DNA from: Gammaproteobacteria bacterium
GTDB lineage: Bacteria; Pseudomonadota; Gammaproteobacteria; JBCCGL01
NCBI GenBank assembly: GCA_965277715.1
Contig: OZ255836.1
Coordinates: 736,001 to 800,000, forward strand
Direction of reading: 5' to 3'
Length of the DNA: 64,000 bases
Of this stretch, positions 3,789 to 58,893 are shown one piece after another; the stretch's first letter is position 1, and every line of letters starts with the position of its first letter. The notes under the pieces were generated by a model. It had not been told where the DNA came from and ran no database searches. It saw only the letters and a list, made by a program, of their open reading frames with translations. The translations under genes and the position numbers were made by a program.

Positions 3789-3833
3789 GCAAAAGGCGCC
3801 TATTTTCCCCTGGTTGAAACACACCAGGTATTT

Positions 3834-3920
3834 CACACGCACACCAGCAAGATTTAGCCGGGTGCCAACAGTGCTTCGGGACGGTTGGTTGGTTGTAATC
3901 GGTGTGCGGAGGTCTAACCC
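3834..3920 (+). ncRNA. rpsB 5' leader (t44/tff-like S2 autoregulatory RNA)
   Basis: CACACGCACACC...CCGGGTGCC...GGTGTGCGGAGGTCTAACCC. The closing stem CGCACACC/GGTGTGCG and the GGGT/AACCC pairing elements sit just upstream of the rpsB RBS. Confidence 0.8.
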
Positions 3921-8841: not shown

Positions 8842-10058
8842 TGCACACCCCGGAAACACAAGGCGCGAAAATGCAAGGTATTGCCATTCTCGGCGCAACC
8901 GGCTCAGTGGGGCTTAGTACGCTGGAGGTTATCGCCCGTCACCCACAGTTGTATCGGGTCGTTGGTTTAGCCGCCAATCGACAGGTTGAGCGTTTATTTC
9001 AACAGTGTGTGGCATTTCAGCCGGATTTTGCTGTTATGCAGGACGCCGATGCCGCCGAACAACTCCGCCGTAAACTGCAATCAGCCGGTATTGCCACGTG
9101 TGTGCAAAGCGGTGATACAGCGCTGTGTGATTTGGCTGCACATCAATCAGTGGACATTGTGATGGCGGCAATTGTCGGTGCGGCGGGCCTGATGTCGACA
9201 CTGTGTGCTGCCCGGGCCGGTAAACGGTTGTTGCTGGCCAATAAAGAAGCCCTGGTTATGTCAGGCCAGTTATTAATGGATGAAGTCGCTGCAAATGATG
9301 CCTGTTTACTGCCTATTGATAGTGAACATAACGCGATTTTTCAATGTGTGTCGCAAGCACAGAGTACGCCTGCGCTCAACGGCGTAAAAAAAATACTGTT
9401 AACCGCCTCTGGTGGGCCGTTTCGCACACTCAATGCAGCGGCACTGCAGCGGGTTACCCCTGAACAGGCGTGTGCACACCCAAATTGGGTGATGGGGCGC
9501 AAAATATCGGTGGACTCATCGACCCTGATGAACAAGGGGTTGGAGGTTATCGAAGCCTGTTGGTTGTTCGCTGTGGATGTCGACAGAATAGAGGTCATAT
9601 TGCACCCGCAAAGTGTTATTCATTCGATGGTGTCCTATGTCGATGGGTCGGTATTAGCCCAACTCGGCAACCCGGATATGCGCACACCGATTGCACACGC
9701 ACTGGCGTGGCCTAAACGCATTGAATCGGGGGTGGAACCTCCCGACTTTCTAACGCTTTCAGCCCTGACCTTCGATACACCTGACACGGATCGGTTTCCC
9801 TGTTTAAGATTGGCCATTGAGACGATGCGGGTAGGCGGTACGGCAACCACCATATTAAATGCCGCGAATGAAGTGGCGGTAGCCGCATTTTTGGATGGTC
9901 GCCTGGCTTTTACCGGGATTCCCGCCCTGATTGAAGATGTGTTGGGGCGAGTGCCTAACCGTGCCCAGCTTACCCTGGAAAATGTGCTGGAAGTGGATCG
10001 GCAAACGCGTGAAGTTGCTGAGGCGCGCCTAACCATTCGACCTGGACGTGTAGCCTGA
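8841..10058 (+). CDS. dxr: 1-deoxy-D-xylulose-5-phosphate reductoisomerase
   Basis: [38 protein letters not shown]. The ATG overlaps the cdsA stop (TAATG); ATG 8871 is an alternative start. Confidence 0.98.
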
Positions 10059-10060
10059 AT

Positions 10061-46306: not shown

Positions 46307-46349
46307 AAAACAGGGCGCCGCTAAACACAACTGTTTTAGCGGCGCCCTG
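46307..46349 (-). terminator. Intrinsic terminator downstream of TRAP dctP
   Basis: 15-bp perfect stem CAGGGCGCCGCTAAA/TTTAGCGGCGCCCTG followed by TTTT on the minus strand. Confidence 0.85.
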
Positions 46350-49464: not shown

Positions 49465-49520
49465 AGTGGTGCTGCAAAAGCCCTTCTCCCAGTTCGGGAG
49501 AGGGACTTTTCCGACACCCT
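49465..49520. repeat. Palindromic hairpin element, copy 1
   Basis: AGTGGTGCTGCAAAAGCCCTTCTCCC-AGTTC-GGGAGAGGGACTTTTCCGACACCCT. The right arm read on the minus strand is AGGGTGTCGGAAAAG, shared with copies at 58536 and 63464. Confidence 0.6.
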
Positions 49521-49633
49521 TCGATAGGAGAAAGGGTCTGAAGCCCAATGGTACGAAAAGTTACTCTAAGAACCCTCTCTCTATAGACCTCTATCTAAGG
49601 CATCCTGATTCAGAGGACTCAATTCCCCCAAGA

Positions 49634-50446
49634 CTATAGTTCTATAAATCGATTCAGTATAGATTCTATGGCCTCTACCAACGCTTCACATTTTTTGCTA
49701 TTGACACTATCAGGATGCGGCGGTGAAAAGTCACCAAGGTCATTATCAAAGTACTGACCTGTAGCTGTGGAAAATTCATCACCTAGACTTGCACGAATCA
49801 AAATATCAACTCCAATGCCAAGATCTTTACCTTCTACACCAAAGCCTTCTTTGACCATCTTACTTGCGAGCATTGAGCCCGGATTAACAGCAATAATTGC
49901 TGGGCTATTACTTTCGAGTGAAAAGGCTAAATGACGAGACCACATGGTAATTGCCAATTTGCTTTGCGCATAAGCGCTAAACTGATCTTCTATATGATGC
50001 TCTCCTCGCATGGTATCAATATCTACAGGTGCTTGTGCTGCCGAGGATAAATTCACAATACGTCCCGTTTCGTTCATTAAAGGCAGTAAGCGTTTAGTGA
50101 GCAAGTACGGGGTAAGGGCATTTACGACGAAGCGAACATCTAATCCATCGTCAGTGATGGGGGCCTGGGTCTTATAAATACCGGCATTATTCACGATGAC
50201 ATCAATATATGAATGTTTGTCGCTGATAGCTTTGGCTAATGCATCGACGTCAACGAAGCTTGATAAGTCTGCTCGGTAGCTTTCAACCGTACCTGTTCCT
50301 AACGCGGTTAATTTATCCTCAACGGCTTTTAGCTTCTCGGCATTTCGGCCATGGATCAATAGGTGATGACCCTGTGCAGCCAGCTTCTTGACAGTAGCTA
50401 AACCGATGCCATCGGTGGCACCGGTGAATAGAATAGTTTTTGTCAT
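49634..50446 (-). CDS. SDR-family NAD(P)-dependent oxidoreductase
   Basis: TGATDGIG, NNAG, NLSS, YAQSK; ATG 50446 with AGGAGG RBS. Confidence 0.92.
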   Translation of the reverse strand: MTKTILFTGATDGIGLATVKKLAAQGHHLLIHGRNAEKLKAVEDKLTALGTGTVESYRADLSSFVDVDALAKAISDKHSYIDVIVNNAGIYKTQAPITDDGLDVRFVVNALTPYLLTKRLLPLMNETGRIVNLSSAAQAPVDIDTMRGEHHIEDQFSAYAQSKLAITMWSRHLAFSLESNSPAIIAVNPGSMLASKMVKEGFGVEGKDLGIGVDILIRASLGDEFSTATGQYFDNDLGDFSPPHPDSVNSKKCEALVEAIESILNRFIEL

Positions 50447-50464
50447 AGTAAACACCTCCTGATT

Positions 50465-51451
50465 TTATATTGTGACGACTACTTTCCCCATACCTTGGCC
50501 GCTCTCGGCATAGCGATGGGCTGCTGCGATCTCAGTCAGCGTAAACTGCTGCTCGGTCATAATAGGCTTGAGTCCACCGGACTCAACAATGTTTGCAATT
50601 TCGCTTAGTATATTGCTATGTGCTTCCCTGCCTTGGTTATGCAACATAGGAATCAACATAAACACTACGTGTAAAGATAAGCCTTTAATATGTGCGAGAG
50701 TTAAATCTAGCTCAACCATGGAAACGGTCGTGGCGATATCACCATTGAGTGCTGCGGCTTCCATAGAATTTAATAAATTCGACTCTCCTACGGTGTCATA
50801 AATAACATCGAAGCCTTTTCCATCTGTATATTTAGCGACATAGTCAGCAACTGTTTCAGTTTTGTAGTTAATGGCTGTTGCACCTAGCGCTTCAATCAAT
50901 GCCAGTTGCTTCTCTCCACCTCCGGTTGCATAAACATCGGCTCCAAGATGTTTGGCTAACTGCACTGCAATATGACCAACACCTCCGGAGCCTCCATGTA
51001 TGAGTACCTTATGGCTTTTTTTCACATTGGCGCGACTCAAGCCTTCATAGGCCGTTATCGCAACTAACGGTAATGCGGCAGCTTCAGCCATGCTTAGATT
51101 ATTAGGCTTATGGGCTATTAATCGTGTATCGGCCAGCATATATTCAGCCAGGCTACCGGCTAGATCACCGAGACCACCAGCACAGCCATACACTTCGTCA
51201 CCCACTAGGTAACCTGTGACACCCTCGCCAATGGCTTCAATCGTACCGGAAAAGTCCATACCGAGTACAGCAGGTAACGCAGGGGCAAAAGGCAGGCTTT
51301 CACCCGATTCACGAATCTTGTAGTCCACTGGGTTGATGCTGCTTGCTGCCACTTTTATTAACACATGCCCAGTTTTGAGCTTAGGCTTTTCGATATCAGC
51401 CGCTTCAAAAACATCGCTGCTGCCAAAATTGTTGATGATCATTGCTTTCAT
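50465..51451 (-). CDS. MDR-family NADPH:quinone oxidoreductase-like protein (lacks the Zn-ligand cysteines)
   Basis: SINPVD, LGMDFSG, HGGSGGVG, GKVV; ATG 51451. Confidence 0.9.
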   Translation of the reverse strand: MKAMIINNFGSSDVFEAADIEKPKLKTGHVLIKVAASSINPVDYKIRESGESLPFAPALPAVLGMDFSGTIEAIGEGVTGYLVGDEVYGCAGGLGDLAGSLAEYMLADTRLIAHKPNNLSMAEAAALPLVAITAYEGLSRANVKKSHKVLIHGGSGGVGHIAVQLAKHLGADVYATGGGEKQLALIEALGATAINYKTETVADYVAKYTDGKGFDVIYDTVGESNLLNSMEAAALNGDIATTVSMVELDLTLAHIKGLSLHVVFMLIPMLHNQGREAHSNILSEIANIVESGGLKPIMTEQQFTLTEIAAAHRYAESGQGMGKVVVTI

Positions 51452-51576
51452 TGTGTATCTCTCAGGCGGTATTGGTAATAACTGCACTTAGTATATTGAT
51501 ATTGATTTAATTTATAATATGCTTAGATATATAATAACTTTATAGTTTTTATTGATAATAATGATAAGCTATCCCC

Positions 51577-52476
51577 ATGAACATTGAGCACCTACGGCTA
51601 TTTGTTCGTATAGCGAATACCCATAACATTAGCCAGGCTGGGCATGAACAGGGGTTGTCACCTGCTGTCGCCAGTAGCTATATCAACAAATTAGAAAAGG
51701 GATTGGGTATACGTTTGATGCATCGCACCACCCGTAAAGTATCATTAACCGAAGATGGTGAAACCTTTCTACCCCACGCTGAAGATGTTTTAGCCAGTAT
51801 TGAATCAGCACATACCTCGGTAGGTGCCGGTAATAATTCGCCAACGGGGACTTTGCGCATTACTGCACCCGTATCGTTTGGTCGCATGCATCTCATGCCT
51901 GCCATGAAGGCTTTTATGCTGGCCTATCCGAACTTGAACATAGACTGCCGCTTCTCCGACAGCATTGTTGACCTGGTCGAGGGTGGTTTTGATATTGCCA
52001 TTCGCAACGCCCAGTTAAAAAGCTCCAGCCTGATTGCCAGAAAACTAGCACCAGACCATCGACTGGTTTGTGCCTCACCTGACTACATTGCACAATTTGG
52101 TGAACCGCAAACACCACAAGAGCTGCAACTGCACCAATGTATAATCTTGTCAGGCATGGACAATTGGCAATTTTCATCGCTCGATGAAACTATCTCCGTA
52201 AAAGTGAAAGGTAAATTTAAAGCTGATAATGGTGAGGCCATTCGAGACGCCTGTATTCAAGGTTTGGGCATTACCATTAATTCCAGCTGGAGTGCTTATG
52301 AATACCTACAACGTGGTGAATTAATACCAATACTAAAAGATTATCCGTTGTTATCTGATACAGCGATTTGGGTTGTGTACCCAAGCTCACGGCAGTTAGC
52401 GTCAAAGGTTCGAGCGTTTATAGATTTTTTTGCTACGGCCTATGGTCAAAAGCCATATTGGTCCTTTTTAGAGTAA
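51577..52476 (+). CDS. LysR-type regulator (CrgA/DmlR-like), divergent from the oxidoreductases
   Basis: N-terminal HTH, RTTRKVSLTEDG, DLVEGGFDIAIR, KVRAFIDF; the stop codon lies inside IRR. Confidence 0.93.
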   Translation: MNIEHLRLFVRIANTHNISQAGHEQGLSPAVASSYINKLEKGLGIRLMHRTTRKVSLTEDGETFLPHAEDVLASIESAHTSVGAGNNSPTGTLRITAPVSFGRMHLMPAMKAFMLAYPNLNIDCRFSDSIVDLVEGGFDIAIRNAQLKSSSLIARKLAPDHRLVCASPDYIAQFGEPQTPQELQLHQCIILSGMDNWQFSSLDETISVKVKGKFKADNGEAIRDACIQGLGITINSSWSAYEYLQRGELIPILKDYPLLSDTAIWVVYPSSRQLASKVRAFIDFFATAYGQKPYWSFLE

Positions 52477-52851
52477 CTTTTCATTCCATTGGGTTTCAGA
52501 CCCCGGGAACTACTGGACCTCCGCTTACAATACGTGCAAATGTAGGGCACACCTCAGCTGATCGGTACTGTCGTCACCGTTAAATCCGGCGGTCGCTGAT
52601 CCATATCCACGTTGAACTGCTCGGACGACCGAAGGAGGCACTAGGTCGCGCTAAGCTGGAGGGGCGCGAACCAATTATTGCACTTTATTCAAACACGGCA
52701 TATCGATTCGGCATAGACGGTGATGTTGACCGGCTATATCAACGCCAGCATAACTAAAGAGTGTTTCAATCAGCAGGAGACCAACGAATATTCTTTACCT
52801 AAGCACATCTAAATTACCTTTGATTTCATGCGCTGTTTTGGCAATTTCACC

Positions 52852-54366
52852 TTAGCCAATGAATGCAGATTTGTATTGATCCCTCAGAATGTTCTTTTGA
52901 ACTTTCCCCATTGTGTTTCGCGGAAGTGCTTCGAGTGTTACTAATTTTCTAGGGTGTTTGAATCGTGCAAGTGAATGCTTAACCGCATTCATTATCCCCT
53001 CGTGGTCGACTACACTTCCTTTTTTGGGCACTACAATGCCGATAACTGTTTCACCAAAATCTGGATGCGGGACTCCAATAACAGCACTCTCCATAACCCC
53101 GGGTTGTTCATCTAAAACCAGTTCGATTTCTTTTGGATAAATGTTATAACCTCCTGAAATGATTAGGTCTTTATCTCGGCCCACGATATGCAAGTAGCCA
53201 TCCGTGTCAAATTTACCCAGGTCGCCTGTAATAAAGAATCCATCTTCGCGGAGCTCAGCAGCCGTTTTTTCGGGCATTTGCCAATAACCTTTGAACACAT
53301 TCGGTCCACGCACTTCTATTTGACCTACCTCACCATCTGCAAGACGTTTACCACTAGCTGGCTCAACAATTCTTACGTCCACATTTGCAAGTGGAAACCC
53401 AACCGTGCCAGCGCGGCGCTCACCATTGTAGGGATTTGATGTATTCATATTTGTTTCTGTCATCCCATAGCGTTCAAGTATCTTATGTCCGGTTCGCTCT
53501 TCAAATTTCATGTGAGTTTCCGCTAACAATGGTGCCGACCCTGACACAAACAGCCTCATATGTTGGGTGAGATCTTTATCAAGTCGATCATCATCGAGCA
53601 ACCGAATATAAAATGTAGGCACGCCCATCATGACGGTCGACCGAGGTATGTTGTCTACAAACAAATCTACGTCAAATTTGGGCATAAAGATGATACTGCT
53701 GCCTGCAACCAAAGATACGTTTATGGCAACGAAAAGACCATGTGTATGGAATATAGGTAATGCGTGAATCAGTACGTCCTTGTCACCGAAATTCCACTCC
53801 TGAGCGAGCGTTTCGCTATTCGACAGTAAATTGTCCTGTGTTAGCATCGCACCCTTAGATCGACCCGTTGTACCAGAGGTATAGAGTAAAGCGGCGAGAT
53901 CATCGCCATCTCGGTCAGCTGTATCGAAAGTGTTAGACATGGTGTTGGCCCGCTCCATCAGGGTGCCTCCTCCATCTGCACCCAACGTTTCCAATTTAGC
54001 TCCAAGCTCACTTGAAAGAGCGCTTAATCCTTGCGAACGACTGGGATCGCAAATAATCAATGAAGCGCCACTATTCTCGATAAAATAGTGCAATTCATTG
54101 CTTGTATAAGCGATATTGAGGGGGAGAAGTACAAGGCCCGCCTGAGCACATGCGGCATATACGGCAAGCGCCTGGTGTGACTTCTCAACTTGTGTTGCTA
54201 CGCGATCACCGGGTTTCAGCCCGAGTTGGTTTGTTACATTCGCGATTTGCGCCGCGATCTCTAAAAATTCTTGGTGACCTAATGTGGTGCCATCCGGCAA
54301 ATGTAAAAAAGGCGATGTCTTTCCTTTGTGAACACCGAACAACTGGTCATATAGTGGATTTGCCAC
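52852..54366 (-). CDS. matB: Malonyl-CoA synthetase
   Basis: YTSGTTGRSKG, LPIFHTHGLFVA, ERYGMTET, LPRNTMGKVQK; GTG start MANPLYD with GGAAGG RBS; TRAP and GntR context. Confidence 0.9.
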   Translation of the reverse strand: MANPLYDQLFGVHKGKTSPFLHLPDGTTLGHQEFLEIAAQIANVTNQLGLKPGDRVATQVEKSHQALAVYAACAQAGLVLLPLNIAYTSNELHYFIENSGASLIICDPSRSQGLSALSSELGAKLETLGADGGGTLMERANTMSNTFDTADRDGDDLAALLYTSGTTGRSKGAMLTQDNLLSNSETLAQEWNFGDKDVLIHALPIFHTHGLFVAINVSLVAGSSIIFMPKFDVDLFVDNIPRSTVMMGVPTFYIRLLDDDRLDKDLTQHMRLFVSGSAPLLAETHMKFEERTGHKILERYGMTETNMNTSNPYNGERRAGTVGFPLANVDVRIVEPASGKRLADGEVGQIEVRGPNVFKGYWQMPEKTAAELREDGFFITGDLGKFDTDGYLHIVGRDKDLIISGGYNIYPKEIELVLDEQPGVMESAVIGVPHPDFGETVIGIVVPKKGSVVDHEGIMNAVKHSLARFKHPRKLVTLEALPRNTMGKVQKNILRDQYKSAFIG

Positions 54367-54389
54367 GATGAATATCCTTCCTACATTCA

Positions 54390-54578
54390 TTAAAAAGAAG
54401 CGGAACCCGCCAGGGCTTGAATATCAGCCGCCGCAAAGCCAGTCCTGCGATTTCTCCGTCAGAACCAACCAAAATCATAAGCCAACTCTTTTAAAGGTCT
54501 ATGGCAATGCCCCTGAGGCCTGAGCCGACGATGTGTCCGTTCAAAGAGAGTGGATAAAAAATCGGCTAACAAACTCAC
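54390..54578 (-). pseudogene. matA: Internally deleted, frameshifted malonyl-CoA decarboxylase remnant
   Basis: GTG overlapping the dctM stop reads MSLLADFLSTLFERTHRR...RPLKELAYD, then a frameshift to LVGSDGEIAGLAL, joined to AAADIQALAGSASF*. It occupies the matA slot between matM and matB. The resemblance to alphaproteobacterial MatA termini is from recall, not a search. Confidence 0.7.
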
Positions 54579-55891
54579 CGGACAGAACCCATAACGACAT
54601 CGGGCAGCCAAGTAGCCATCTCTGGAATCAGGCAGAGTAAAACAATCGCTAAAACCATACAGGCGACATAGGGCAATGAACCGGTAAGGATTGTTTTCAG
54701 CGAGATTTCCGGCGCGATACCGTTAATCACATAGAGGTTAAGACCCACTGGAGGCGAAATTAACCCAATCTCCATGTTAATGGTCAACACAACGGCAAAC
54801 CATATTGGGTCGAAGCCGGCTGTTACGATAATGGGCAGCAATATCGGCGCCGCCATCAAGATGACTGCGACAGGCGGTAAAAAGAAACCGGCAATTAGGA
54901 GAAACACGTTGACGGCGCCCATCAACACCCAGCGATTAACATCCAACGTGCCGATCCACTCTGCGATGGATTGGGTGATGAATAGCGAAGACAACATATA
55001 AGAAAACACACCAGCGGCGGCGATGATGAATAGAATCATCACTGACTCCTTCGTACTGTCGCGCAACACCACCCAGATTGAACGAGGGTGCCAAAGCTTG
55101 TAGATGACAATAGCAATCAACAGGCAAAGCAAGGCACCTACGGCAGCAGTCTCTGAAGGCGTTGCTACTCCGCCATACATGGCATAGAGCACACCAATAA
55201 TAATGAGGATAAACGGTAGCACCCGGGGGAGAATTTCAAAACGCTCTGCCCACGTGTACCTGACTGAGCCCATTTGTGCTCTGTTACCCGAACGCCAGGT
55301 TGAATACAAAGACCACGCCATGAACAATCCGACCAGCATCAGCCCTGGAATTACCCCGGCGAGAAAGAGGCGACCAATGGATGTTTCTGTGGCGATGCCA
55401 TAGACAATCATCGTTACCGATGGGGGAATAAGGATACCCAGTGTTCCCCCTGCAGCGATTGAACCGGCCGCCACTGCGTCGGGATAGCCTCGTTTACGCA
55501 TTTCTGGGATACCCATTTTCCCAATAGCCGCACAGGTTGCCGGAGAAGAACCGGACATTGCTGAAAATAATGCGCACGCACCAAGGTTAGAAATCACCAG
55601 TCCGCCAGGTACACGCGTTAGCCAACGCTCAAGTGCTTCATACAAATCTGCACCGGCCCGGGTAGAGGCAACAGACGCGCCCATAATGATGAACATAGGG
55701 ATCGACAACAGTGCAAAGTTGTCCAGTTTTCCGAAGAGGATTTCAGGCATCAATTCCAGAGAACGCAGCCCGTCGAAGGTGATCAGAAACCCGGCAGATA
55801 CGATTAACAGGCCGATCGCCACTGACACACCGGAGAACAATACGAGGATGGTAGTGATGGCAACCAATCCACCAAGAAGTAAGGGATCCAA
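54575..55891 (-). CDS. dctM: TRAP large permease (malonate, MatM-like)
   Basis: GSSPATCAAIG, GGTLGILIPPS, SPPVGLNLYV. Confidence 0.92.
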   Translation of the reverse strand: MDPLLLGGLVAITTILVLFSGVSVAIGLLIVSAGFLITFDGLRSLELMPEILFGKLDNFALLSIPMFIIMGASVASTRAGADLYEALERWLTRVPGGLVISNLGACALFSAMSGSSPATCAAIGKMGIPEMRKRGYPDAVAAGSIAAGGTLGILIPPSVTMIVYGIATETSIGRLFLAGVIPGLMLVGLFMAWSLYSTWRSGNRAQMGSVRYTWAERFEILPRVLPFILIIIGVLYAMYGGVATPSETAAVGALLCLLIAIVIYKLWHPRSIWVVLRDSTKESVMILFIIAAAGVFSYMLSSLFITQSIAEWIGTLDVNRWVLMGAVNVFLLIAGFFLPPVAVILMAAPILLPIIVTAGFDPIWFAVVLTINMEIGLISPPVGLNLYVINGIAPEISLKTILTGSLPYVACMVLAIVLLCLIPEMATWLPDVVMGSVR

Positions 55892-55893
55892 GG

Positions 55894-56439
55894 TTAGTCC
55901 TCCAACCCGAAGGGTTTATCTATTTCCAGTAATACAGCCACAAGATCAGCAATTAACTGGAGAAGAAAAAGCGCAAAGCCGACGGGGAGGGCGAGGTAAG
56001 GTATCCAAAGGCGAACACCCCAAACGGTGTCTGAGCGCCACCCCCGATCCCATGCGATATGCCAGTGCTCAAAACCGTACCAAAGCATCACCGCGACAAT
56101 TGAGATGGATAAAACGGATGTCAGAATGGCCATCACGTATCGAGGCCGACGTGAAAGTGATAAAGGAATCAGATCCACATTCACATGACCCCGCAGGCGT
56201 TGGACATAAGAAAGCCCAATAAGGGTTGCGGCAACCATCAGATAGATGACCGCTTCGGTCTGCCACACTGTCGAGCCATTCAATACAAAGCGCACCACAA
56301 TCATCTGACATGTAATTGTCACTGCCAGGACGATCATCGCTGCTGATAGCCAACCTGCCAGGGTAGAGATGCCCGCGACAAACCGAAGAAAACGGTTACC
56401 TCTCGTGTTCGAAACAGCAAATGAGGATTGTCCTGCCAT
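55894..56439 (-). CDS. dctQ: TRAP small permease (MatQ-like)
   Basis: 4 TM helices, GHVNVD. Confidence 0.9.
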   Translation of the reverse strand: MAGQSSFAVSNTRGNRFLRFVAGISTLAGWLSAAMIVLAVTITCQMIVVRFVLNGSTVWQTEAVIYLMVAATLIGLSYVQRLRGHVNVDLIPLSLSRRPRYVMAILTSVLSISIVAVMLWYGFEHWHIAWDRGWRSDTVWGVRLWIPYLALPVGFALFLLQLIADLVAVLLEIDKPFGLED

Positions 56440-56464
56440 GATCGTTATCCTGTTAAGTGCATGT

Positions 56465-56495
56465 AAGAAAAGGGGCGGTTATATGTGTCGCCCCT
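56465..56495 (-). terminator. Terminator or stabilising hairpin between matP and matQ
   Basis: Minus strand AGGGGCGA-CACATATAA-CCGCCCCT-TTTCTT. Confidence 0.6.
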
Positions 56496-56516
56496 CACAA
56501 ACTCTTACCAGGATGA

Positions 56517-57512
56517 TTACTCGACAGCCAGCGCCATATCCAGCAGCGCTTGTCCATCCTTAACTTCTTCAACGAAGGCTTTGTATGATGTGTCTTGGGC
56601 AATAGCACGCCACGCTGCGAAATCACTTGCGCTCATCTCTGCAATTTCAACACCTGCCTCGCGGAACTTGTCAGTCGAAGCCGCATCTTGTTTCTTCGCC
56701 TCTGCCAGGTAAAAAGCCTCCGCCTTTTTGGAGGCAGCCAATAGAGCGCTTTGTTGGGCATCATTTAACCCGTCGAACGTTCCTTTATTCATCAATAACG
56801 GCTGATACATAAACCAAAGGGCTACGTCACCAGCAGGTGTATAGCAGCTCACTTGCTCATAAATACGATAAGATACAAATGAGGAAGACGAGGTATTGGC
56901 AGCGTTTAGAACCCCAGTTTGCATGGCATTGTAGATTTCTGATGACGCCATTGATGCTATCGATGCCCCGGCTCCCGCTAACATCTGCTCAAAAGCTTTT
57001 CCTGCGGCTCGGGTTTGCAGACCCTTTACATGCTCTGGCTTGGTGATGCACTTGTCCTTTCCTGCAAAGCCACCGGCGAGATAACCATGGACCAGTACCA
57101 TGACATCATCTTCAGCCATTTTTTTCTCCAACGCCTTCATAAAGGGAGATTTACTCAGTCGTGCAGCGTGATCATGGTTTTTAACCAGACCTGGCATCAG
57201 CGTTAGGTTGTAAGCTGGTTGTTGCCCGCCCGCGTAGCTAAGGGGCAGTACCGTCATGTCTAGCTGGCCACGACTCAACGGCTTGTATTGTTCTCGCGGC
57301 TTGAACAGTGATTTTGAGCCAAATATCTTGATAGAGAGATCAACATTTGCTGCAGCAACCTCATCTGCAACGATCTTTGCTACCTTGTGGCGAATGTCTT
57401 TGTTCGACCACTGGTGCGAAAGCCGCAGTTCAGCGGCGTATGAAGATTGGACTGCTAACCCAAGTAATAGAGCAGTTATTGAGCAAAAAGCTGTTTTTGT
57501 TACTGATTTCAT
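56517..57512 (-). CDS. dctP: TRAP substrate-binding protein (MatP-like DctP)
   Basis: Signal peptide, LRLSHQW, KGLQTR, EIYNAMQTGV; ATG 57512 with GGAGG RBS. Confidence 0.9.
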   Translation of the reverse strand: MKSVTKTAFCSITALLLGLAVQSSYAAELRLSHQWSNKDIRHKVAKIVADEVAAANVDLSIKIFGSKSLFKPREQYKPLSRGQLDMTVLPLSYAGGQQPAYNLTLMPGLVKNHDHAARLSKSPFMKALEKKMAEDDVMVLVHGYLAGGFAGKDKCITKPEHVKGLQTRAAGKAFEQMLAGAGASIASMASSEIYNAMQTGVLNAANTSSSSFVSYRIYEQVSCYTPAGDVALWFMYQPLLMNKGTFDGLNDAQQSALLAASKKAEAFYLAEAKKQDAASTDKFREAGVEIAEMSASDFAAWRAIAQDTSYKAFVEEVKDGQALLDMALAVE

Positions 57513-57591
57513 TAATTCTTCCTCCAAGTAATTTACCCATCAATAAAGGTGTTGCACAAATATAAGCCAATGTTGAATACTATAGAAATGT

Positions 57592-57605
57592 TATTGTATA
57601 CACAA
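57592..57605. promoter_or_regulatory. MatR (GntR) operator
   Basis: TATTGTATACACAA in the divergent matP/matR spacer resembles the TTGTATACA(A) MatR box known from rhizobia. Confidence 0.65.
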
Positions 57606-57631
57606 GGTTGCACTATGTATTTGTTAGATAA

Positions 57632-58315
57632 ATGGATAAACTAATGACCATGAAGCCAAGAGCTGCAGATAACGTTGCGAAAGAGCTAGAAGAGCTTATC
57701 TTCAACGGCACATTTACGGATGGTGACAGGTTAGATGAAATCCGCTTGGCTGAACATTTTGGTGTTTCCAGAACGCCAATTAGAGAAGCATTTCAGAAAC
57801 TTGCATATTCCGGCCTGTTGGAACTAATTCCCAGGCAGGGCGCGTTTATACGCCAACCAGGACCCATTGATCTGATCGAGATGTTCGAGGTGATGAGTGA
57901 GATGGAAGCAATCTGCGCTCGTCTAGCCACTATCCGAATTTCAAATGAGGCGCTAAATGAGCTTTATCGTGCCAACGAGAATTGCAGATTAGCAGTGGAT
58001 GCCGATACTCCAGATCAGTATTACTTTGAGAATGAAAAGTTTCACAAGATCATTTACAAACAATCTGGAAATGGTTTTCTAGAAGCAGAAGCCATCAGGT
58101 TACACAACCGGTTAAAGCCATTTCGCCGCCATCAACTGCGGTTACGTGGACGGATGGCACAATCGTTAAGTGAGCACGAAATGGTAGTGTCCGCGATGAA
58201 GGAAGGTAATCCGGAAGCCGCCGCCAATGCGCTTCGTGATCACGTTGCTGTTCAAGGTGAAAAGTTTCAAAACCTGATGGCGATCCTGAAAGAGTCTTCC
58301 AAACAATCAGCTTGA
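57632..58315 (+). CDS. matR: GntR/FCD-family regulator (MatR-like)
   Basis: LAEHFGVSRTPIREA HTH, FCD residues N..FH and EH..H; divergent from the mat TRAP genes. Confidence 0.85.
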   Translation: MDKLMTMKPRAADNVAKELEELIFNGTFTDGDRLDEIRLAEHFGVSRTPIREAFQKLAYSGLLELIPRQGAFIRQPGPIDLIEMFEVMSEMEAICARLATIRISNEALNELYRANENCRLAVDADTPDQYYFENEKFHKIIYKQSGNGFLEAEAIRLHNRLKPFRRHQLRLRGRMAQSLSEHEMVVSAMKEGNPEAAANALRDHVAVQGEKFQNLMAILKESSKQSA

Positions 58316-58535
58316 TTGTTTCACCCTTCAGACCAACCCCAGCGAAACCAGCTGTGCCCTATATTTACACATGCTATAAGGTGACACCTACTGGTGTTTA
58401 ACGGGTTAGCTTAGCGTTATTCCAGCTCTTGTTGCAAACGCTGCACAATGTCTTCAAAGTGCTTTTTTCCAACGACAGTATAAAGCGCAAAAGAGACCGC
58501 CATTGCACGCATCCGGGGTGTCCATTGGCTATCGT

Positions 58536-58574
58536 GAGGGTGTCGGGAAGCACAGTAGTTTTCTGATACACCTC
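58536..58574. repeat. Palindromic hairpin element, copy 2
   Basis: GAGGGTGTCGGGAAGCAC-A-GTAGTTTTCTGATACACCTC, overlapping the stop of the 106-aa gene. Confidence 0.55.
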
Positions 58575-58893
58575 AGAGTGGCAGGTAACGCAGCCCCCGA
58601 GGGGTCAGCTTGAGCAGGTGATTACCCACACTGTCGCGCTCAATAATGTCGACCAGACGCCGTTTTTCCAAGCGATCCAGTACATTAAGCACATCTTTGA
58701 AATCCAGGTTTGCACTGTTTACCAGGTCGTGAAGCCGTACTTCTTCGTCATCCGTTTCGGAGAGTTGGCGCAGCACCGCCTCGCCAATTGTTTCGGCTGC
58801 CTCGTCGATATAGTCTTGTGCAGCGTATTTTTTCTGCTGGGGCTTGTCTGGGCGCAGCCAGGAGACATCCAGCTGTTTTAAAATTTGGATCAT
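58573..58893 (-). CDS. Hypothetical protein, probable winged-helix DNA-binding fold
   Basis: LHDLVNSANLDFKDVLNVLDRLEKRRLVDI...LKLTPRG resembles a MarR-like wHTH wing; AGGCG-like RBS upstream. Confidence 0.6.
   Translation of the reverse strand: MIQILKQLDVSWLRPDKPQQKKYAAQDYIDEAAETIGEAVLRQLSETDDEEVRLHDLVNSANLDFKDVLNVLDRLEKRRLVDIIERDSVGNHLLKLTPRGLRYLPL

Follow-up and report, generated by a model that had tools for sequence, protein, structure and literature searches.

A malonate module between imperfect inverted repeats in a gammaproteobacterium, possibly the cargo of an old cassette moved in trans

This analysis concerns a malonate (mat) module on contig OZ255836.1 of a gammaproteobacterium (assembly GCA_965277715.1), within a stretch of 64,000 nucleotides (nt; contig positions 736,001 to 800,000) that was analysed as a whole and is hereafter called the window. 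From matB to matR, this module is bracketed by two imperfect inverted repeats of 28 nt, the arms, and 7 nt outside each arm stands the same heptamer, CTACTGG, both copies being on the same strand. We tentatively read the mat module as the cargo of an old cassette resembling the mobile insertion cassettes (MICs), of a family that could not be placed, and moved in trans. Directly observed are the repeats with their geometry, a cargo of foreign origin, the lack of any transposase, and a neighbouring cassette of Tn3 type. The reading is drawn from the homology of the arms, from their position in the non-coding flanks of a foreign module devoid of transposase, from the heptamer found at equal offset on both sides, and from 12 nt of host-like sequence separating the module from its neighbour.

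Coordinates count from letter 1 of the 64-kb window. The parts of the bracket are as follows:

52510..52516, plus strand: left copy of the CTACTGG direct repeat, whose left side touches the 5-bp duplication of the adjoining Tn3-type cassette
52517..52523, plus strand: left 7-nt spacer ACCTCCG, either an element tip or a coupling-like segment
52524..52551, plus strand: left 28-nt inverted-repeat arm, with the sequence CTTACAATACGTGCAAATGTAGGGCACA
52552..52851, no strand: gene-free 300 nt from the left arm to the matB stop codon
58353..58380, minus strand: right 28-nt inverted-repeat arm, the opposite strand of which reads CTTATAGCATGTGTAAATATAGGGCACA, starting 38 nt past the matR stop codon
58381..58387, plus strand: right 7-nt spacer GTGACAC
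58388..58394, plus strand: right copy of CTACTGG, which makes up the loop and some of the stem of a small 6-bp hairpin extending over spacer and flank

The two arms are identical at 22 of 28 positions and all six mismatches are transitions. Their similarity extends to 31 nt inwards at the cost of one more mismatch and then ends and, when read outwards from the mat side, both arms start with TGTG. The spacers ACCTCCG and GTGACAC are unrelated, only 2 of 7 positions agreeing as an inverted repeat (counted by hand). An earlier note on this DNA had given the same arm coordinates, the same 22/28 identity with six transitions, and CTACTGG copies at 52510-52516 and 58388-58394 in direct orientation at a 7-nt offset; every letter of the arms was rechecked and these statements proved exact, and its remark that the intervening 7-mers do not match was borne out. 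The 300-nt left spacer (52552-52851) gave no match in Rfam and none to the proteins flanking the Ruegeria mat module, its six-frame translation shows nothing recognisable, and its plasmid matches were found only at E of about 1.

The similarity of the arms was compared with shuffled and real sequences. Between these two flanks, an identity of 22/28 was reached in 1 of 2000 shuffles, and the gapped local alignment score of the arms, 17, was above all 300 shuffles. Random real pieces of the window, used as a control against each flank, never matched that score (0 of 5860 and 0 of 5856). Among the 40 inverted pairs of at least 21/28 in the window, the mat pair is the sole one with transitions only: transitions make up 93 of the 264 mismatches (a fraction of 0.35) in the other 38 pairs, and 2 of 6 in each of two other chance pairs at 22/28. 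At that background rate, six transitions out of six would occur with a chance of about 0.002 by our own arithmetic. Given these controls and the transition-only mismatches, the arms are very probably homologous by descent rather than matched by chance, in agreement with the earlier suggestion that once-identical ends had decayed. As for the heptamer, a 7-mer direct repeat at an equal offset of 0-20 nt was found for 0.21% of random position pairs, and any common 7-mer within 27 nt for 3.0% of them. The CTACTGG repeat is thus probably, though not certainly, more than a coincidence. Its perfection counts neither for nor against it, since an intact 7-mer would be expected with a probability of about 0.19 (own arithmetic) if the arms had diverged by 21% from an identical start.

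The bracket is specific to this copy of the module and is not a general property of mat modules. Indeed, the best inverted score from flank to flank was reached by 0 of 400 shuffles at the locus of the window, and by 298, 78 and 8 of 400 shuffles at three alphaproteobacterial plasmid mat loci, a fourth, whose gene table lacks matB, being left out of this comparison. The loci retrieved for comparison contain no further copy of the arms. Nucleotide homology to the module on plasmid unnamed3 of Ruegeria sp. SCSIO 43209, at 67-75% identity, spans 52870-58281 and lies inside the coding limits. Both the specificity of the bracket and the arrest of the homology at the coding limits are grounds for the MIC-like reading.

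Further grounds come from the surroundings of the module. The GC content at third codon positions (GC3) is 0.38-0.42 in the genes of the Tn3-type cassette and 0.42-0.56 in the mat genes, compared with 0.60-0.62 in the TRAP genes to the left and 0.58-0.61 in orf106, LysR2 and the aldehyde dehydrogenase gene to the right, and the codon-usage fit to core genes is poorer for both modules, paralleling GC3. On these codon statistics, 49533-58394 is a single foreign island of 9 kb made of two modules. The left end of the bracket is therefore not a junction with the host, as it lies inside a larger island, against a Tn3-family cassette that the earlier note does not mention. The left CTACTGG abuts the right 5-bp duplication (52505-52509) of that cassette, and the 12 nt between the two foreign modules consist of GGGAA followed by CTACTGG. 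Since GGGAA copies a host 5-mer whose partner, GAGAA, touches the host flank, the simplest view is that the left CTACTGG belongs to the host, as it must if it is a target duplication.

The island also separates a host gene from a strong hairpin:

49476..49510, minus strand: hairpin with U-tract in the left host flank (z = -3.1)

The minus-strand orf106/LysR2 unit probably has this hairpin as its terminator, and the island now puts 9 kb between them. Moreover, a third inverted block relates the two host flanks (49508-49527 and 58529-58549, 18/20 with one gap, chance about 0.007-0.012); it is taken as evidence for the contiguity of the flanks only. In an empty site built by script, which joined the flanks through a single CTACTGG and a single GAGAA, the fold of minimum energy contained a 16-bp pairing, 49511-49527 with 58529-58546, just before the hairpin. 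The separation of gene and hairpin and the pairing of the joined flanks both argue for the MIC-like reading. They are compatible with a gap of roughly 60-230 nt between gene and terminator that received two insertions, in which case the two cassettes would lie side by side because few other positions nearby were tolerated.

We infer that the arms are the ends of one element, that the 7-mer is its target duplication and that the enzyme acted in trans. The true ends of the cassette would then be at 52517 and 58387, the 28-nt arms would be subterminal binding sites for the enzyme so supplied, and CTACTGG would be a 7-bp host target copied on insertion. The landing site would be the short permissive gap that extends from the 3' end of the host orf106/LysR2 unit to its terminator. 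A second transposase-less cassette, with Tn3-family ends, would have landed in the same gap, directly adjoining the first, in either order. On this mechanism, the empty site would read ...CGATAG-GAGAA-CTACTGG-TGTTTAACGGG..., with one CTACTGG.

Close known counterparts are the MICs, one or several genes without transposase within imperfect inverted repeats; the qnrS2 MIC of Aeromonas has repeats of 22 bp with 4 mismatches, and a 5-bp direct repeat touching them, read as the mark of transposition in trans (PMC2600179). The mat cassette resembles such MICs by its lack of transposase, its imperfect inverted repeats (28 bp with 6 mismatches) and its flanking direct repeat. It differs in that its duplication has 7 bp and stands 7 nt away from the arms instead of flanking them directly, and in that its repeat family is unplaced and known from one copy. 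As to kinship of its repeats to those of an autonomous insertion sequence (IS), the plasmid and phage records gave no real match, and the comparisons made yielded a weak 12/13 match to the right repeat of IS2. The earlier note had proposed a mobile cassette type that it could not place: the repeats are very probably homologous and their family is indeed unplaced, but transposase-less cassettes mobilized in trans had already been described as MICs (PMC2600179, PMC4133298). The idea of a trans-mobilized cargo cassette is not new, and the mat cassette, if real, would vary a known kind.

Several points weigh against the MIC-like reading. A single instance is known: the 28-mer was not found elsewhere in the window at up to 3 mismatches, it gave only matches at E of about 0.9-9 in 72,556 plasmid records, and in 50,697 phage records it gave E = 6 or no match. 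The direct repeat stands apart from the arms, and the two 7-nt tips do not form an inverted repeat. We know of no described transposition chemistry that predicts a 7-nt offset with unrelated tips, and the prior for such a geometry is therefore low, comparable to the 0.2-3% chance of a coincidence. The right CTACTGG lies in a small hairpin, which could have its own reason to exist. Both modules have a similarly low GC3 and may have arrived together by another route. Across the window, inverted pairs of at least 22/28 at a spacing of 300-20000 nt number four, about the chance expectation, self-blastn of the window does not return the mat arm pair at E<=1, and CTACTGG occurs 9 times where 4.0 are expected, an over-representation of about twofold.

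The last three of these points, together with the failure to find a second arm copy in the window or in the plasmid and phage collections, also speak for the plainest of the alternatives, namely that the repeats are meaningless and that the arm similarity and the 7-mer were picked out after the fact from 64 kb. We nevertheless hold this to be highly improbable. None of the real-sequence controls attained the arm score, the six transitions are poorly explained at the background rate, the arms occupy the two non-coding flanks of a single foreign module, and the equal-offset 7-mer has in itself a chance of 0.002; the product of these odds is far below one per window. Another account sees in the arms the relics of outward-facing IS or transposon ends, left by a decayed composite element or by two insertions, the 7-mer being coincidental. 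The TGTG start that the arms share in the outward direction agrees with it, a TG-type tip being common among DDE elements, and against the right inverted repeat of IS2 of Escherichia coli K-12 the right arm agrees at 12 of 13 bases; shuffles attained the score in 0.6% of cases for the right arm and in 1.8% for the left. The weak third block (49508-49527 / 58529-58549) is also collinear with the arms in the outward frame, although its chance value is only about 0.007-0.012. The IS2 match, however, came from a set of 16 comparisons, loses significance on correction and lies at a different offset from the tip, and an IS3-family end is kept as a lead only. Beyond either arm there is no IS body or transposase fragment, and the right flank is host-like in composition and encodes, on the other strand, a small protein resembling winged helix-turn-helix proteins. 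Furthermore, the similarity ends after 28-31 nt on both sides, as for terminal repeats and not for truncated IS copies, and the plasmid collection, rich in IS copies, yields no real match. We regard such relics as unlikely.

The arms would have a different meaning if they were sites for a tyrosine recombinase supplied in trans by the host or by an integrative element, with CTACTGG as the attL/attR crossover core, as in a dif module or a cis-mobilizable element. The presence of 28-nt inverted sites around a discrete, recombinase-free module suits this proposal, and a split into 11, 6 and 11 nt has the form of a dif site, with 10/11, 5/6 (centre) and 7/11 positions conserved by hand count. The non-identical 7-nt segments recall the coupling sequences of Tn916-type elements, and the right junction shows a dyad symmetry of 5/7 around the 7-mer (hand count). 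The left junction shows just 2/7 by the same count. Moreover, the arms do not resemble E. coli dif, which they match at 9-13 of 28 positions, and the dif site of the host itself lies outside the window. Whereas dif has an inner dyad symmetry of 5/5, they have 3/5 and 2/5. The window positions that score at least 14/22 on the dif arms do not include either mat arm; by hand the two score 12/22, and a score of at least 12 is found at 977 of some 128,000 positions. No XerD-arm motif occurs in the window when up to 1 mismatch is allowed. The usual gap in such recombinase sites is 6-8 nt, a length exceeded by the 21 nt that would separate the arms in a putative circle junction. The dif modules of Acinetobacter plasmids have no recombinase of their own and are flanked by inverted 28-bp sites of which one 11-bp half is better conserved (PMC6449649). 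Site length and inverted orientation agree with those of the mat arms; dif modules are without the flanking direct repeat of the mat cassette, and the mat arms are not dif-like. A recombinase acting in trans is consequently an improbable explanation in our view. It is very unlikely that the arms are a functional motif, such as an operator or a protein- or RNA-binding site, rather than the end of an element. The inverted repeat, combined with divergent genes, does place the 28-mer in the same sense downstream of the matB operon and of matR, in 3' untranslated regions, and a loosely similar AT-rich stretch was noticed by eye in the matP-matR promoter region. Yet the left arm is 300 nt beyond the matB stop codon, the arms show no unusual fold (z between -0.65 and +1.9) and no Rfam match, no ungapped match of at least 18/28 to either arm exists elsewhere in the module, and the motif is absent from the homologous alphaproteobacterial modules. 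The probability that remains beyond the MIC-like reading and these four alternatives is left to explanations that were not thought of.

The arms were also compared with known families. As Tn3-type repeats they were rejected, since they show no similarity in either orientation to three Tn3-type repeats (12 comparisons, at least 107 of 500 shuffles being equal); they have no GGGG at either end and no 5-bp repeat. The mat cassette, lacking the 38-bp GGGG-ended repeats and the 5-bp duplication of the Tn3 type, is not a member of that family. Multi-site ends of Tn7 type were discarded, neither arm half recurring within the ends. As an RNA family or structure, the arms had no Rfam match beyond a snoRNA model at E = 0.33 and a fold no better than that of shuffles. 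Elements of Tn916 type have imperfect end repeats, each beside a short segment that differs between the ends (the coupling sequences); their genes include those of Int and Xis, and they insert without a target duplication. The mat cassette departs from them by the absence of a recombinase and by the 7-mer repeat beyond the segments. In the IS1111 family, the subterminal repeats are 11-13 bp long and near-perfect, with a 7-bp extension on the left and a 3-bp one on the right. The elements make no true target duplication and encode a DEDD transposase and a guide-RNA region, and certain members insert at the ends of transposons of Tn21 type, in the Tn3 family (PMC11187229). Subterminal inverted repeats and a 7-bp extension beyond the left repeat are thus common to the mat cassette and to this family. 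The mat arms, by comparison, are 28 bp long at 22/28 identity, have extensions of 7 and 7, and are accompanied by a direct repeat without any transposase domain, and the mat site lies 5 nt outside the Tn3 repeat (the GGGAA duplication) and not inside it. Membership of IS1111 was rejected on repeat length, identity, extensions and transposase. In the open literature, no paper was found that pairs 28-bp inverted with 7-bp direct repeats in transposition, which is not proof of absence. A search of genome contigs for related loci based on LysR1 returned 7 loci, all of them paralogues from unrelated bacteria with 33-42% identity, no such search having been made with the 28-mer, MatB or the right flank.

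The cassette adjoining the mat module on its left is composed as follows:

49533..52504, no strand: Tn3-family cassette without transposase, with left inverted repeat at 49533-49570 and right inverted repeat at 52467-52504, 33/38 identical
49528-49532 (GAGAA) and 52505-52509 (GGGAA): 5-bp duplication of this cassette, 4/5 identical
49634-50455, minus strand: SDR (short-chain dehydrogenase), cargo
50465-51487, minus strand: Zn-ADH (zinc-type dehydrogenase), cargo
51577-52476, plus strand: LysR1 regulator, cargo

Its ends form the strongest repeat of the window in self-blastn (49534-49572 against 52465-52503, inverted, 39 nt, 89.7%, E = 3e-7), and the GGGG ends of the 38-mers point outwards. The right repeat matches 74 plasmid records. 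On plasmid pVPH1 of Vibrio parahaemolyticus, a Tn3-family transposon has ends that agree with the repeats of the cassette at 32-33 of 38 positions; the matching repeat lies where the annotated Tn3 family transposase has its 3' end, and an inverted copy of it stands at the opposite end of the transposon. As a whole unit, the cassette was not found on plasmids, where 14 records each cover at most 27% of it. From its 38-bp Tn3-type repeats, its 5-bp duplication and its lack of transposase, three marks that are all present, the segment 49533-52504 can be classified as an ordinary Tn3-family non-autonomous cassette. Tn3-type MICs of Xanthomonas have reportedly been described. Non-autonomous elements derived from Tn3, TIMEs and TIME-COMP, are likewise a described kind (PMC4133298). 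The neighbouring cassette is of this kind, and it shows that cassettes moved in trans landed at this spot.

The host can be assigned, from its predicted proteins and gene order, to the gammaproteobacteria, in a lineage that is poorly sampled. For BamA, a single read-assembly protein is 100% identical, the next match being at 69% and the nearest named relatives (Granulosicoccus) at about 53%. Housekeeping genes, from rpsB to dnaE, accA and tilS, fill the first 35 kb of the window. The gammaproteobacterial host of the earlier note agrees with both the BamA matches and this gene order. The sole Rfam match of the window is a t44 RNA (RF00127, 44 bits, equal to the gathering score) at 3816-3918, upstream of rpsB. 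A 40-nt palindrome that is 90% self-complementary, probably a terminator, lies at 46311-46349 between a histidine-phosphatase gene and dctP1. To the right of the island, orf106 (58417-58893, minus strand) has no Pfam family above cut-off and a weak hit to HTH_45 (E = 0.006); its frame runs 51 codons beyond a stop codon to 58417, which may reflect read-through, a broken longer gene or chance.

Between the arms, genes were assigned with Pfam, complemented by NCBIfam matches, and are listed with their identity to the Ruegeria plasmid proteins:

52852..54366, minus strand: matB, malonyl-CoA synthase (NF005702, 803 bits against a cut-off of 558; homologues of 504 amino acids), 72.8% amino acid identity
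54419..54578, minus strand: matA remnant (malonyl-CoA decarboxylase), about the first 53 codons, in two frames
54575..55891, minus strand: matM, TRAP large permease (DctM), 91.5% amino acid identity
55894..56439, minus strand: matQ, TRAP small permease (DctQ), 78.3% amino acid identity
56517..57527, minus strand: matP, TRAP solute-binding protein (DctP), 84.0% amino acid identity
57632..58315, plus strand: matR, GntR/FCD regulator, divergent from matP, 69.3% amino acid identity

In the five genes that the arms enclose, and in four overlapping open reading frames, Pfam detected neither a transposase nor a recombinase domain, as the earlier note had stated for the inside of the bracket. The matA locus is reduced to 223 nt, against 1273 nt at the matching place in the Ruegeria plasmid, Ruegeria MatA aligns only at residues 1-33 and 36-53 (E = 6.8e-5), and the window holds no second copy of matA. 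With this gene content, the module is predicted to make malonyl-CoA and no longer to be able to decarboxylate it. With matA surviving only as a stub, the module is old and decayed.

The gene order and orientation of the module match those of Rhodobacteraceae plasmid modules, at 67-75% nucleotide identity, and those of Rhizobium plasmid modules. Collinear modules, with TRAP DctP/Q/M and a GntR regulator, are present in four alphaproteobacterial plasmid loci; the genes beside them differ in each of the four plasmids, and their flanks are unrelated to those of the window. As the gene order is kept while the neighbours differ, the module appears to have been reshuffled as a unit among alphaproteobacterial plasmids too, without detectable inverted repeats. 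In the Rhizobium sp. CC-CFT758 plasmid, a gene for an IS110 family transposase (locus positions 9023-10060) lies 109 nt downstream of matR. This element was considered as a source of the arms and rejected, showing no similarity to them. MatB is 72-75% identical to named malonyl-CoA synthases of the Roseobacter group; in a large protein collection, it has one match at 99%, one at 87%, encoded on a 13-kb metagenome contig, and then matches at 75% and below. Among its best 120 matches, all those bearing a genus name are alphaproteobacterial, mostly from the Roseobacter group. Together with the plasmid gene order, these names sustain the alphaproteobacterial appearance that the earlier note had attributed to the module. 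Roseobacters have a high GC content and, given the low GC3 of the mat genes, the module seems to have stayed for long in a lineage of lower GC; a recent direct transfer is not implied.

The cassette currently stands as one decayed copy in a poorly sampled lineage. It is rather doubtful, though conceivable, that it represents an undescribed family with 28-bp subterminal inverted repeats, 7-nt non-complementary tips and a 7-bp duplication or crossover core, which was moved in trans and brought a Roseobacter-type malonate uptake module into a deep-branching gammaproteobacterium. If the cassette reading is true, metabolic operons would cross bacterial classes in transposase-less cassettes bearing a repeat type that is not catalogued, and the offset between repeat and duplication would be a mode of end recognition not described for MICs. 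The firm result is that an alphaproteobacterial mat module, minus matA, has a standard cassette of Tn3 type as its neighbour, the two occupying a small hot spot of insertion that separates a gene from its likely terminator.

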